A stretch of 64,000 nt of DNA from an uncultured Gammaproteobacteria bacterium (GTDB lineage Bacteria; Patescibacteriota; Microgenomatia; Daviesbacterales; UBA10151), in the NCBI GenBank assembly GCA_964547465.1, contig CAZJNI010000005.1:7020-71019 (forward strand). The letters run 5' to 3'. The stretch's first letter is position 1. Every line of letters starts with the position of its first letter. The position numbers and the translations under genes were made by a program. Shown piece after piece: positions 13,726 through 55,515 of this stretch. Under the pieces are notes generated by a model that saw only the letters and a list, made by a program, of their open reading frames with translations, ran no database searches and had not been told where the DNA came from.

Positions 13726-13802
13726 GTCATTGCGAGCCCCGAAGGGGCGTGGCAATCTTAATTAAGAAAGATTCCCACGTCGCTTCGCTCCTCGGAATGA
13801 CA
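13726..13802. mobile_element. Intergenic copy of the palindromic MITE-like element.
   Basis: gtcattgcgag-ccccgaaggggc-gtggcaatc...cgcttcgctcctcggaatgac. Confidence 0.8.
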
Positions 13803-13815
13803 GAAGAAAAGAATT

Positions 13816-51810: not shown

Positions 51811-53322
51811 ATGACTCTGGTCGCAGGAGCTGAAAGAATTAGAGGCGGCGCTATGGGGCTTTTTATAACTAATGATTTATTACCCCGCGCAATATCTTTA
51901 ACTGGAGGAATGGGAATGACCTCTATTGAAGGAATTGATCATATTTTAGCCAGGCTACTGCAAAGAGGAGATCCCACAGGCAGTATATTAAGAACAGTAG
52001 ATGAATTTGAGGATAGATTTGATGCTCATGAACTATCAGACTATGTTAGAAGTCTTTATGTGCCCGGAGGAATCCCAAAAGGCCAACCTTACCGGCAGCT
52101 GCCTATGTTTGGAATCAATCCAGACAAACGGATAGAAGGTCTTAATGTTTTTGGAGGATACTGGATTGTCAGGGCTGCAAAAATGGGCAGATACTTAAAA
52201 GGTCCTGAAGTAAAAATTGCCGCTAATAAGCTCGAAGAGGTCCAAACTCCGGTTATGGCTGTAACTTTTGGAGTAATGCTGGCCGGTGGAGATGAAATAG
52301 AAATCAGTGCCGGTTTACCTTTTCAAATGCGGGAGAATATCAAAAAGTTGTGCGCTTTAGAATCTGTCAAATATGATCTTACTGTTCACCATGGGACCGA
52401 TGAAAGAAAAGAAGATTTTAAAAGATATATGGTCCGTTTTAATCCCAAAAATCATATTGGCCGTCTTGACCATGACCTTAAAGAACCCAGAATAACCGGA
52501 GTTGCATCTTCTAATTTTGCTGTAAAGATCTTGACAGATAGCAAAAGACACCCTAACGCTATAGATCAGCTTAAAGTAGAACTTCCTCAAAAAACCGGGG
52601 GGCATAGTACAAAACCACGCGATATTGCATATAACGAGAGAGGCGAATATCAATATGGTCCAAGAGATGAAATAGATTTAGAATTGGTTATAAGGTTAAC
52701 CAGGGACATTGGTATCCCTGTCACATTGGCCGGAGGATTTTCTACCCCGGAAGCAGTCAAAGGAGCCATTGAATTAGGTGCTGATAGTGTTACAGTTGCA
52801 ACCCCATTTCAGTATTGTATGGAATCCGGCCTCCCGCAAAATGTGAAACGAGCGATTATTAATCAGGCTTCAAAGGGAAATCTGGATGTTTATAACGACC
52901 CAAGAATCTCTCCCACCTATTATGCTTTTAGGGTTGATAGAAATATTGAAGGGGTACCTAGTATAGGAGATACTGATGTATATGAGGACTGGAGTGCAAA
53001 TCATAGATCCTGCACAATTGGACGGCTTAGAGAACGTACTACTCACAATGGAAGATTAACCTGGATATGTAAAGCTGAACCTGTTGAAGATTATATCCGG
53101 AAGGGAGGAAAAACCGAAGATACTGTGGGTGCAGGGTGTCTTTGTGAAAACCTACTTTCCGCTATAGATTTAGGTCAAACTCATAAAGACGGTTATGAAG
53201 TGCCCCCTTTATATAGTTCCGGGACTGAACAGGGACAGTATTTTTTACCTGAAGTTTTACGCGGAAGAAACTCATATACAGCCAAAGATGTTGTTGAATT
53301 TTTAGTATCAGGGTTAAGATAA
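51811..53322 (+). CDS. Flavin-dependent TIM-barrel oxidoreductase of the NMO/FabK-like family (tentative).
   Basis: LTGGMGMTSIEG and IPVTLAGGFSTPEAVKGAIELGADSV resemble nitronate monooxygenase and FabK motifs. Confidence 0.4.
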   Translation: MTLVAGAERIRGGAMGLFITNDLLPRAISLTGGMGMTSIEGIDHILARLLQRGDPTGSILRTVDEFEDRFDAHELSDYVRSLYVPGGIPKGQPYRQLPMFGINPDKRIEGLNVFGGYWIVRAAKMGRYLKGPEVKIAANKLEEVQTPVMAVTFGVMLAGGDEIEISAGLPFQMRENIKKLCALESVKYDLTVHHGTDERKEDFKRYMVRFNPKNHIGRLDHDLKEPRITGVASSNFAVKILTDSKRHPNAIDQLKVELPQKTGGHSTKPRDIAYNERGEYQYGPRDEIDLELVIRLTRDIGIPVTLAGGFSTPEAVKGAIELGADSVTVATPFQYCMESGLPQNVKRAIINQASKGNLDVYNDPRISPTYYAFRVDRNIEGVPSIGDTDVYEDWSANHRSCTIGRLRERTTHNGRLTWICKAEPVEDYIRKGGKTEDTVGAGCLCENLLSAIDLGQTHKDGYEVPPLYSSGTEQGQYFLPEVLRGRNSYTAKDVVEFLVSGLR

Positions 53323-55515
53323 TTTTAACTTTTCCATCTCCCCCCAATTTGGGCCTGTTTTTAGATCCACAACCACCGGCACAGATAACTTCAGGGCATT
53401 TTCCATTTTTTCTTTGACCATTTTGGCTATTTCTTCTACCTGTTTTGGGTTACATTCAAAAAGCAGTTCATCATGAATCTGTAAAACGAGGGAGCACCCT
53501 TCTGTCATCCCGGACTTGATCCGGGATCCATGTGATTCTTTATTTGTATAGATTCCCGCCTTCGCGGGAATGACAGAGGAAATTTCCACCATTGCCTTCT
53601 TAATCATATCCGCAGCTGTTCCCTGAACAGGATGATTAATGGCAGCCCGCTCACCAGCTGCTTTTATCATATGGTTGGCAATCTTAAGCTCCGGAATATA
53701 TCTTTTTCTGCCCCATAAAGTTTCTACATAGCCATTCTCGTAGCCAAATTCCAATGTTTTCTGCATCCACTCCCGCACTTTGGGGAATTGTTCAAAATAT
53801 TCAGCTATATATTGGCGCGCCAGCTCATATTCCACTCCCAGCTGGCGTGACAGCGCATGAGGGCCTTGGCCATAAAGAGTGGCAAAATTCATGGTTTTAC
53901 CCACATTTCTTTGCTGCTTAGTCACTTTATCCAAAGGGACTTTAAAAATCTTAGCTGCTGTGGCTGTGTGAATATCTATACCAGACTCAAATGCACGTTT
54001 TAAGCCTGGATCATCGGCCAAATGAGCCATAATCCGAAGCTCGATTTGTGAATAATCAGCTCCAAGTAAAACTTTACCCTTTGGAGCCACAAAAGCCTTG
54101 CGCATCTCACCACCCAACTCACCTTTAATTGGAATATTTTGTAAATTAGGATCTTTGGAAGATAGCCTGCCTGTAGCAGCTCCTTCTACATTAAAAGTGG
54201 AATGAATCCTTCCGTCTTTTGCATATTTAGGCAAAGCATCAATATAGGTAGAAACCAGTTTAAAAAGCTGGCGGTATTCCAGCAAAAGTGGAATTACAGG
54301 ATGAGCTGGAGCTAATTCATGTAACGTGGCTTCATCTGTAGATCTGCCTGTTTTGGTTTTTCGAAAAACCGGTAAATTTAGCTCATCAAAAAGTATAACT
54401 TGAAGTTGCTTTGGGCTGTTGATATTAAACTGATGTCCTACTTTTGAGTAAATATCTTTCTCTAACTTGATTAATTTAACCTTCATCTCTTTACCAAACT
54501 TAGCTAAAAACTTCAAATCAACAGCTATTCCGGTTGCAGTCATTTTCTGCAAAACTTTTTCAACCTCTTTGTCTAAATCTGAGGTTACACCTCCGAGGTG
54601 TGAACTTGACGTCTCCTTGACTTCACCTCGGAGGTGAGTACCAGGAATCCTTGCAATTAAGCTTTTAAACTCCAGCTCTTCAAATAGCTTAACTACTTTA
54701 TCTTTATCAAAATCATGAACCACACAGGCGGCAAAATCCAGCTTGATTGGAGCCTTAAGATCTAAGGTGGCCAGTTTTTTACTCATCACAGCAGATTCTG
54801 CACCTTCGGATAAAAGAGTTTGCATTCTTTCTGGCAAAGTTTTCAGGTTCTCAACTTTATAAATCTCTTCAATTGGACCAAACTGGTGTATTAATTTGGT
54901 AGCCGAAACATCACCAATCCCCGCCACCCCCGGAATATTATCTGATTGATCTCCTGCCAGCGCTTTGTAGTCAACCAGTTGACTGGGCATAAAGCCATAT
55001 TTGGCCACAAACTCCTCTTCCCCATAAAGTCCCACATCAGATAAAGTTTTCTTGGGCATAAAGACCTTAATCCTTTCATTAATCAGCTGCATAATATCCC
55101 TATCTCCTGTCACAATAATAGTTTGTAGTTTGTAGTTGGTAGTTGGTAGTTTGGTTGCCTGCACTGCAAGTGTTCCTATTAAATCATCTGCTTCAAAACC
55201 TGCCAGTTTAAATTCTGGAATATTAAATGCTTTAACCACTTCGTGTACCCTTTTATACTGACCTGACAGTGCCTCATCTGCCGGACCTCTGGTGGCTTTA
55301 TACTGGGTATACGCCTGGTGTCTGAATGTTGGGCCTTTTTCATCCCAGGTAACAGCCAGATAATCAGGCTTTAACTCATCAATTACTTTTAAAACCATCG
55401 AGGAAAAACCATAAACCGCATTAACCAGTTCACCTTTGCTGGTTGTAAAAGGAGGAGTAGCATGATAAGCCCGATGCAGCAGGGCATTTCCATCTACTAA
55501 AACCAGTCTTTTCAT
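53314..55515 (-). CDS. polA: DNA polymerase I (5'-3' exonuclease plus polymerase domains) carrying a MITE insertion.
   Basis: N-terminal LVLVDGNALLHRAYHA, motif A DYSQIELRI and motif C HDEL. Confidence 0.9.
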   Translation of the reverse strand: MKRLVLVDGNALLHRAYHATPPFTTSKGELVNAVYGFSSMVLKVIDELKPDYLAVTWDEKGPTFRHQAYTQYKATRGPADEALSGQYKRVHEVVKAFNIPEFKLAGFEADDLIGTLAVQATKLPTTNYKLQTIIVTGDRDIMQLINERIKVFMPKKTLSDVGLYGEEEFVAKYGFMPSQLVDYKALAGDQSDNIPGVAGIGDVSATKLIHQFGPIEEIYKVENLKTLPERMQTLLSEGAESAVMSKKLATLDLKAPIKLDFAACVVHDFDKDKVVKLFEELEFKSLIARIPGTHLRGEVKETSSSHLGGVTSDLDKEVEKVLQKMTATGIAVDLKFLAKFGKEMKVKLIKLEKDIYSKVGHQFNINSPKQLQVILFDELNLPVFRKTKTGRSTDEATLHELAPAHPVIPLLLEYRQLFKLVSTYIDALPKYAKDGRIHSTFNVEGAATGRLSSKDPNLQNIPIKGELGGEMRKAFVAPKGKVLLGADYSQIELRIMAHLADDPGLKRAFESGIDIHTATAAKIFKVPLDKVTKQQRNVGKTMNFATLYGQGPHALSRQLGVEYELARQYIAEYFEQFPKVREWMQKTLEFGYENGYVETLWGRKRYIPELKIANHMIKAAGERAAINHPVQGTAADMIKKAMVEISSVIPAKAGIYTNKESHGSRIKSGMTEGCSLVLQIHDELLFECNPKQVEEIAKMVKEKMENALKLSVPVVVDLKTGPNWGEMEKLKLS
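53514..53574. mobile_element. Variant palindromic element (GTCATCCCGGACTTGATCCGGGAT...CCCGCCTTCGCGGGAATGAC) in-frame within polA, encoding VIPAKAGI.
   Basis: Inverted termini related to the GTCATTGCGAG family. Confidence 0.7.
55119..55153. repeat. Heptamer tandem repeat (TAGTTTG/TAGTTGG) x5 inside polA, encoding PTTNYKLQT.
   Basis: Period-7 repeat. The same unit occurs at 48183-48203 in the GT4 gene. Confidence 0.9.

Follow-up and report, generated by a model that had tools for sequence, protein, structure and literature searches.

Inverted hairpin repeats within and between the genes of a Candidatus Daviesbacteria genome: probable gene-less relatives of a module encoding an Ssn-type GIY-YIG nuclease

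A 64,000-nucleotide stretch of a genome of Candidatus Daviesbacteria, a lineage of the Candidate Phyla Radiation (CPR), is populated by small palindromic elements, several of which are embedded in housekeeping genes; this stretch is hereafter the window, and all window counts refer to it. We posit that these elements are probably solo units and inverted pairs of a hairpin repeat recognized as single-stranded DNA (ssDNA), of the kind described as CGTC-tagged repetitive extragenic palindromes (REPs) or Ssn-related motifs (SRMs), and that they represent the gene-less form of an Ssn-nuclease module, which would be mobilized in trans. In other bacteria, including a CPR genome, two inverted units of the class that dominates the window, the ATTGCGAG class, bracket a gene for an Ssn-type protein of about 95 residues, forming a module that resembles an insertion sequence (IS). 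It is because of this arrangement that the window elements can be read as gene-less derivatives of the module, to which they would stand as REPINs stand to RAYT genes.

The string GTCATTGCGAG occurs 15 times in the window with at most one mismatch, against an expectation of 0.41, and none of 100 shuffled versions attained this count, which bears out the proposal of a repeated palindromic family in the first-pass annotation of this DNA. A scan for whole units, defined as YGTC followed by a stem, a loop, the complementary stem and C, recovered 19 hairpin units at 11 sites, arranged as eight dimers and three solo units. By class these are seven ATTGCGAG dimers, one dimer and one solo unit of the NTS/CGTC-1 type, and two further solo units, as follows:

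11256-11292 (+): solo unit of the ATTGCGAG class with a cGTC tag, an ATTGC/GCAAT basal stem and a GGTCCGCC/GGCGGACC apical stem; in the polyprenyl synthase gene 10590-11480 (-), translated as ..IATVRQGGPRND..
13726-13801: ATTGCGAG dimer of units 13726-13757 (+) and 13770-13801 (-, with an ATTCC/GGAAT stem); intergenic, with the HMG-CoA synthase-like gene on one side and the thiolase gene on the other
14473-14496 (+): solo NTS/CGTC-1-like unit, tGTC-ATTCCCTC-GAAA-GAGGGAAT-C; in the thiolase gene 13816-14967 (+), encoding VIPSKEGI
15377-15463: ATTGCGAG dimer of 87 nt; in the mevalonate kinase gene 15257-16240 (+), translated as VIARREQSDRRGNLYLNKIASLPSVARND
24075-24146: ATTGCGAG dimer of 72 nt; in the EndoQ-like gene 23493-24866 (-), translated as VIASGAKQSNQEIATSANGRTRND, between two blocks that align to P. 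furiosus EndoQ
26266-26377: ATTGCGAG dimer of 112 nt with a 45-nt spacer; in the ATP-dependent DNA ligase gene 25312-27168 (-), at the turn after motif I (KFDG..QIH)
39135-39221: ATTGCGAG dimer of 87 nt; in recF 38844-39998 (-), at the beta-turn that reads L-E-G in insert-free orthologues
42149-42224: ATTGCGAG dimer of 76 nt with the opposite order of modules; in fpg 41492-42409 (-)
43454-43554: ATTGCGAG dimer of 101 nt; at the intergenic fba/glpX junction
45840-45864 (-): solo unit of the ATCCTGAA class, tGTC-ATCCTGAA-TTTA-TTTCAGGAT; intergenic
53504-53574: dimer of NTS/CGTC-1-type units, 53504-53528 (+) and 53551-53574 (-); in polA 53314-55515 (-), just before motif C (LQIHDE), translated as VIPAKAGIYTNKESHGSRIKSGMT

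Seven complete elements with the architecture proposed earlier are among these and had been placed correctly, save that one starts at 43454 rather than 43455; the solo units at 14473-14496 and 45840-45864 had been overlooked. What had been taken for a half copy at 11256 proves to be one whole unit, and position 53514, given as the site of a polA variant encoding VIPAKAGI, is internal to the dimer of NTS-like units, the peptide itself being as reported. Eight of the 11 sites, where at least six had been estimated, lie within uninterrupted open reading frames (ORFs) that have Pfam or PDB matches on either side of the insert. The hosts are the genes for polyprenyl synthase, thiolase, mevalonate kinase, an EndoQ homologue (match to PDB 5zb8, E = 2e-44), an archaeal-type ATP-dependent DNA ligase, RecF, Fpg and PolA; the closest homologues of RecF and PolA are labelled Candidatus Daviesbacteria or Microgenomates.

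Read 5' to 3', a ATTGCGAG unit comprises a pyrimidine (Y), GTC, ATTGC, GAG, a copy-specific G+C-rich stem-loop, CG(T/A)(G/A), GCAAT and a closing C, and a complete element of 72-112 nt joins two such units, tags outward, across an A+T-rich spacer of 9-45 nt. With solo units included the elements span 24-112 nt, and the inserts that they encode 8-38 residues. Across the seven ATTGCGAG dimers the recognition modules are constant while each apical hairpin and each spacer is different, as had been claimed. The PolA and thiolase units instead have 8-bp stems and loops of 4-5 nt; CAT, which yields CCA with the closing C, follows the PolA unit 53504-53528 as well as that of the thiolase gene, and TAT follows the unit 53551-53574. 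The base 5' of GTC is C or T in 19 of the 19 window units and a pyrimidine in 94% of 494 units elsewhere, and in units from other genomes the ten bases upstream of the tag are poor in G and rich in pyrimidines. As ssDNA the dimers fold at z = -4.9 to -6.6 relative to shuffled sequence, and the solo units fold into a hairpin that leaves GTC unpaired. The conserved modules are also largely open to translation: GTCATTGCGAG is open in all three frames and CTCGCAATGAC in two of three, the remaining one containing TGA, making five of the six reading frames free of stops. An Rfam scan of the window at the gathering threshold gave no family, a tRNA scan no tRNA, and an NCBIfam search with the insert peptides neither a match nor a model for a domain derived from Rickettsia palindromic elements (RPEs).

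That the hairpin unit, rather than the whole palindrome, is the functional entity is shown by the pattern of substitution. Two of the window dimers have one unit with ATTCC...GGAAT in place of ATTGC...GCAAT, the other arm being unchanged. A larger set of dimers was drawn from 120 genome loci fetched by the pattern of the first unit only, the partner unit being left free to vary. Here, the stem of the partner unit is perfectly complementary in 49 of 56 dimers, compared with 22.7 after shuffling of partners, and where this stem departs from TTGC, in 21 cases, compensation is present in 17 (as TTCC/GGAA, TTCT/AGAA, TCGC/GCGA, TTAC/GTAA, TCCC/GGGA or TCAC/GTGA) while the first unit stays TTGC. Since the partner stems are compensated with the first unit unchanged, it is pairing inside the unit that is conserved, at the cost of pairing between the arms, and the hairpin is thus under selection. 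A comparable change is seen within polA, where the window unit 53504-53528 and the unit at 12049-12072 of locus L325 belong to dimers with a common spacer and differ by one compensated stem pair, G:C to T:A (CCGGA..TCCGG versus CCGTA..TACGG), the encoded peptides reading RIKSGMT and RIKYGMT; hairpin pairing has been kept here at the expense of the protein sequence. The target-site duplications that the first-pass annotation proposed to look for are not present above chance: flanking direct repeats of 1, 2, 3, 4 and 5 nt were found in 4, 3, 1, 1 and 0 of 57 dimers, respectively, at or below the chance level.

The connection to a nuclease comes from other genomes. Among the 120 genome loci selected for the repeat, two (L023 and L106) contain a GIY-YIG ORF, identified by a strict regular expression and then jackhmmer, a count that is not significant by itself; one of 120 viral loci selected in the same way has such a gene. 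The partner protein is 95-98 residues long, with PF01541 as its sole significant domain, and has invariant Y7, Y18 and E65 in a spacing identical to that of Y6, Y17 and E64 of Neisseria SsnA, the residues mutated in that enzyme (Chenal et al. 2025, PMC11893778). In both genome loci the gene is placed between inverted ATTGCGAG units; in L023 the spacer ends TCCCGGTAC and GTACCGGGA are also inverted, and the outline of this locus is that of the gene-less dimers of related genomes.

It was the reverse test, with 80 metagenome loci picked solely for encoding a homologue of the GIY-YIG protein, that made the link between repeat and nuclease convincing. GTCATTGCGAG, again with up to one mismatch, lies within 300 nt upstream of the gene in 27 of the 80, downstream in 26 and on both sides in 24, at a density of 2.03 per kb near the gene versus 0.20 per kb farther off. 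In the usual layout the tags point outward, with one unit 40-70 nt ahead of the start codon and the other 30-80 nt beyond the stop codon. Most of the remaining loci are flanked by other GTCAT...ATC classes, for example ATCCTGAG, ATTCTGAG, ATGCTGAG and the exact NTS; homologues that are 50-60% identical are flanked by the exact NTS (L170), and the ATCCTGAA class, to which the window's solo unit at 45840-45864 belongs, flanks ssn genes in loci L183 and L197. The flank class is the same in the nearest protein neighbour in 47 of 56 cases, against 12.8 expected; that is, protein and repeat class co-vary. The arrangement extends to the CPR in a contig of Candidatus Nomurabacteria (L203), in which the gene at 729-1016 lies between ATTGCGAG units at 635-659 (+) and 1028-1052 (-).

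Both partners are widely distributed. Profile searches recover the GIY-YIG family from Nitrospirota, Cyanobacteria, Bacteroidota, Elusimicrobia, Proteobacteria and the CPR, and ATTGCGAG units occur in Alpha-, Beta-, Gamma- and Deltaproteobacteria, Dehalococcoidia, Clostridia, Bacteroidota, Planctomycetota, Nitrospirota, Melainabacteria, Rickettsiales and several CPR lineages, as well as in at least 120 viral contigs. In two of the viral contigs (L223 and L243), as many as 15 ATTGCGAG units, all pointing one way and about 40 nt apart, form arrays that are clusters and not dimers.

The intragenic copies are best understood against L121, the syntenic locus of a related Daviesbacteria genome, which served as the reference for empty sites. 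Four window sites are empty there. The fpg product reads ..ILGIEL-DD-ITLL.. in L121 and has 27 additional residues in the window; RecF reads ..VELEGRN.. and has 34 more; the ligase reads ..QIH-KDGDK-VRLFSRN.. and has 41 more, directly after motif I; and glpX and fba abut in L121, with 115 extra nt between them in the window. No unit was found in the 21 kb of L121 or in 11 kb of another relative (L122), as opposed to the 19 in the 64 kb of the window. The orthologue comparison that the first-pass annotation recommended agrees, the inserts being absent from most orthologues of the host proteins. This absence, which includes the syntenic relative, marks the segments as polymorphic insertions and not native sequence. 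They occupy surface loops between conserved blocks: the EndoQ and mevalonate kinase inserts fall between blocks that align to solved structures, and the RecF insert, residues 260-285, has pLDDT below 50 in an AlphaFold model and lies between strands 251-257 and 292-294, the model being of only moderate quality (mean pLDDT 65.6) and used solely for the disorder of the insert and its position between two strands.

Across other genomes, in all contexts, dimer lengths are uniform modulo 3 (20:19:18), yet every intragenic site of the window is in frame and stop-free, and the net gains at fpg, recF and the ligase gene, where L121 permits the comparison, are in whole codons. Since the lengths at large show no such preference, the in-frame, stop-free state of the intragenic copies points to selection on the translated product. 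In practice, protein families are enlarged and broken up by such inserts, and the annotation of reduced genomes can go astray because of them.

Certain positions have evidently received inserts repeatedly. At least 25 of 120 RecF orthologues have inserts at the same beta-turn, from several repeat classes. Among 117 orthologues the PolA loop that precedes motif C varies in length between 8 and 44 residues, with 21 inserts of the ATTGCGAG type, eight of the NTS type and many other palindromic ones. The glpX/fba junction has no element in L121 and L325, where the genes abut or overlap, and holds a ATTGCGAG dimer in the window and a dimer of a different class in L324, another Daviesbacteria contig. 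The occurrence of different repeat classes in the same RecF and PolA loops across Daviesbacteria lineages is testable as targeted insertion or as tolerance.

A number of further observations concern these same sites. The dimers of L324 are of the ATCCTGA/ATTCTGA classes and lie on either side of fba (13717-13821 and 14920-15005), one of them being that at the glpX/fba junction; another, at 6818-6892, falls in the PolA linker region. Most of the long PolA-loop inserts are not of the SRM type (for example ..KMDNGKLKI..NSQFSILN.., ..SVVSRQSSD..LKADSERSERS.. and ..SRVKSQE..LSTLATS), and in L324 (5936-8194) the DNA forms an imperfect palindrome that contains (TTCTCAA)n. The PolA landing site appears to be shared by several palindromic repeats that are unrelated to one another. 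Some Daviesbacteria PolA proteins (P0308, P0311 and P0348) are about 1150 residues long, with intein/LAGLIDADG domains (PF14890 and PF14528), and true inteins therefore coexist with the small hairpin inserts in this family. Near the fba/glpX dimer, glpX (minus strand) has a (GGGGAAA)4 tandem heptamer at 43621-43648 that adds about ten residues (KGERGKGKGE) close to the GlpX C-terminus, with 30 nt missing from L121.

In terms of known systems, CGTC-tagged REPs have an unpaired C/TGTC tag, a stem opening with A-T and T-A, stems of 8-9 bp, loops of 4-5 nt and a CCA tail, and mostly form inverted dimers; they have no associated transposase, and their in-frame copies are found mainly in genes for DNA synthesis and repair (PolA, ligase, Uvr, DnaE) of several phyla (Di Nocera, De Gregorio & Rocco 2013, PMC3733652). 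The window elements agree in the unpaired YGTC tag, the A-T/T-A start of the stem, the inverted dimers, the want of an adjacent transposase, the in-frame copies in DNA-related genes and the peptide layout of the dimers, VI....I ... ....ND. The PolA and thiolase units fit the CGTC-1 family, with an 8-bp stem, a 4-5 nt loop, the peptide VIPAKAGI and, on one unit, a CCA tail. In contrast, the ATTGCGAG class has a shorter basal stem, a conserved asymmetric internal loop (GAG/CGWR) and an apical stem-loop that varies from copy to copy; the peptides that it encodes (VIAR.., SLRG.. and ..ARND) are not in the 2013 lists, and the CPR goes unmentioned in the passages of that paper used here.

The gene bias is similarly shared. 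All five DNA-metabolism genes of the window have a site, as opposed to three of about 55 others (post hoc P ~1e-5), which echoes the bias in the 2013 survey without explaining it. In-frame proliferation inside such genes, which the first-pass annotation had called rare, is accordingly already catalogued for several phyla (PMC3733652). The same source equates the CGTC-1 and CGTC-4 of R. conorii with RPE-6 and RPE-4 and the CGTC-1 of Neisseria with dRS3, and its supplement lists VIPAKAGI for R. conorii CGTC-1 units (RC0483, RC0657 and others; PMC3733652). The window PolA unit encodes this very peptide, so the likeness to Rickettsia palindromic elements that had been noticed earlier is closer than an analogy. 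RPE-1, the subject of work by Ogata and colleagues in 2000 and 2002, reportedly shares with the window elements the placement of palindromic repeats in frame in unrelated housekeeping genes at fold-compatible positions, but differs in its length of about 150 bp and in encoding a conserved peptide of its own.

The third comparison is with NTS (CGTCATTCCCGCGMAVGCGGGAATCYRG) of Neisseria, an ssDNA target that the single-domain GIY-YIG nuclease SsnA binds and cleaves a few nt upstream (Chenal et al. 2025, PMC11893778). Binding by Ssn enzymes requires the hairpin and its 5' tag and takes place on ssDNA only, cleavage falls a few nt 5' of the tag, and added sequence in the loop is tolerated; ssn genes across phyla are flanked by SRMs in an IS-like arrangement, mobility being only hypothesized (PMC11893778). 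The published SRM pattern, HGTCWYN(0-2)YYVSBRHN(0-5)WNVSBRGN(0-2)RNCYNB, has two matches in the window, both of them PolA units, against 0.1 expected from shuffles. The shared features are the HGTC-tagged hairpin, the inverted copies around a single-domain GIY-YIG gene of ~95-100 residues in other genomes, and the co-variation of protein and repeat class, and the tolerance of the loop accounts for the variable apical hairpin; unlike the published cases, the window has intragenic translated copies, which the 2025 paper does not discuss, and no ssn gene.

Striking as they are, the elements are largely accounted for, as they belong to a kind already described in 2000-2002, 2013 and 2025. The ATTGCGAG class itself, its presence in the CPR with its abundance in this genome, and the recurrent insertion into RecF and PolA loops are apparently undescribed: we found no description of the class in the literature, the supplementary lists of Chenal et al. 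2025 and the RPE consensus sequences being outside this comparison, and a literature search on the exact DNA and peptide sequences gave nothing beyond unrelated matches to primers. A MITE of Cardinium that was considered was set aside as lineage-specific and derived from IS982. What the analysis adds is a unification of the RPE-4 and RPE-6 of Rickettsia, the dRS3/NTS of Neisseria, the CGTC REPs, and the VIAR, SLRG and ARND peptides that clutter hypothetical proteins in many phyla, as one kind of hairpin, with an Ssn-type GIY-YIG nuclease gene borne by its autonomous form. The analysis also widens the Ssn/SRM system to the CPR and to a class missed by the published pattern, and supplies a concrete case bearing on why such repeats sit in frame in DNA replication and repair genes.

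Under the explanation that we prefer, an Ssn enzyme encoded elsewhere in the genome, or formerly present, would mobilize or maintain the units in trans via ssDNA, without duplicating the target. Copies landing in genes would then persist only if in frame, stop-free and in a surface loop, and the five open frames would ease their survival. Several points weigh against this explanation. The seven ATTGCGAG dimers have only the recognition modules in common and hence give no sign of a recent copy-and-paste burst in this genome. Their basal stem of 5 bp is short of the 8-9 bp of the described CGTC families, and no ATTGCGAG unit of the window matches the published SRM pattern. Among the ORFs of the 64-kb window there is no transposase, Y1/HUH or GIY-YIG domain, and most repeat copies at large sit far from any nuclease gene, as only the two genome loci and the single viral locus noted above hold one. 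GIY-YIG enzymes, moreover, act on DNA by hydrolysis, rejoining is not a known activity of theirs, and Ssn is not known to move its repeats. A bolder version, which we advance only tentatively and with less than even confidence, is that SRM-ssn-SRM constitutes a distinct, pan-bacterial minimal mobile element driven by a ~95-residue GIY-YIG ssDNA nuclease in place of a transposase, with hairpin ends and no target duplication, whose gene-less doublets home repeatedly to the same few sites, namely loops of replication and repair enzymes and gene junctions. If true, this repeat homing would endow RecF, PolA, ligase, Fpg and EndoQ of CPR bacteria with inserted peptides that are hypervariable. The interest of the system stems chiefly from these insertion hot spots, the bias toward repair genes and the idea of repeat movement driven by a GIY-YIG enzyme.

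A rather different account, which we regard as unlikely, would have the units be mainly host-selected Ssn sites that limit or shape the recombination of incoming ssDNA, in the manner of NTS near key genes of Neisseria, with the repair-gene bias being functional. Such selection would sit well with the invariance of the recognition modules when the rest of each copy differs, with the compensatory change that keeps the hairpin even within polA, with the excess of sites in DNA-metabolism genes and with the precedent that SsnA/NTS modulates transformation in Neisseria (PMC11893778). However, close relatives live without the inserts, the different classes seen in the same loop across lineages look like turnover and not a conserved function, and the origin of the copies would be left unexplained. 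A host-beneficial role may instead be secondary and domesticated, alongside the trans-mobilized origin favoured above. That the units are REPINs proper, that is, REP doublets mobilized by a RAYT tyrosine transposase of the Y1/HUH type, is highly improbable in our estimate. REPIN/RAYT and IS200/IS605 systems do resemble them in the recognition of an ssDNA hairpin beside a short tag, in the doublets, which here coexist with solo units, in the absence of target duplication and in having a single-copy enzyme gene flanked by its own repeats; but they use a GTAG tag and a covalent tyrosine (HUH) intermediate as opposed to YGTC and a hydrolytic GIY-YIG enzyme, no window ORF is a Y1 transposase, the gene bracketed by inverted units in the 80 metagenome loci, which were picked for it, is the GIY-YIG one, and the 2013 survey detected no transposase in association with CGTC repeats (PMC3733652).

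The label first given to the elements, that of MITEs (miniature transposable elements with inverted repeats), does not hold in its classical sense of cut-and-paste deletion derivatives of an IS with a DDE transposase, an origin we find barely credible. The 11-bp terminal inverted repeats (GTCATTGCGAG...CTCGCAATGAC), small size and many copies do recall MITEs, but the 57 dimers lack target-site duplications, covariation is within units and not between arms, solo units exist, and at no examined locus does a DDE transposase lie between such ends, the gene found there being the GIY-YIG nuclease. The chance that the segments are removed before the mature protein, as mini-introns or inteins, or are native variable loops, seems to us vanishingly small. 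Their position between conserved blocks of the host proteins is what either would lead one to expect; against this, their length of 24-112 nt falls well short of that of self-splicing introns and inteins and they have no Rfam match, the true inteins of other Daviesbacteria PolA proteins are about 430 residues and of quite different appearance, and most orthologues do without the insert. Further, none of the eight intragenic copies breaks the frame or introduces a stop, a restriction that can come only from translation and that would be needless were they removed before it, for which reason we reject the intron and intein alternative.

The wider gene content of the window has features of its own. 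A complete mevalonate-pathway cluster occupies 11515-18732, with HMG-CoA reductase, the HMG-CoA synthase-like gene, thiolase, mevalonate kinase, a second GHMP kinase, a NUDIX gene and diphosphomevalonate decarboxylase; the archaeal-type ATP-dependent ligase and EndoQ are likewise encoded by this CPR bacterium. Genes of the toxin-antitoxin type, specifying AbiEii, Fic, a Gp49/HTH pair and PIN, are found at 2281-2955, 28624-29700, 45919-46589 and 59257-59661, and a Cas2-like PaaX_M protein is encoded at 30191-30730. Finally, two similar small hairpins (TTTTGTSAYACTTTTG ... CAAAAGTRT) lie at 38799-38834, just downstream of recF, and at 45791-45826, beside the solo unit 45840-45864; these may be terminators or another small repeat family.

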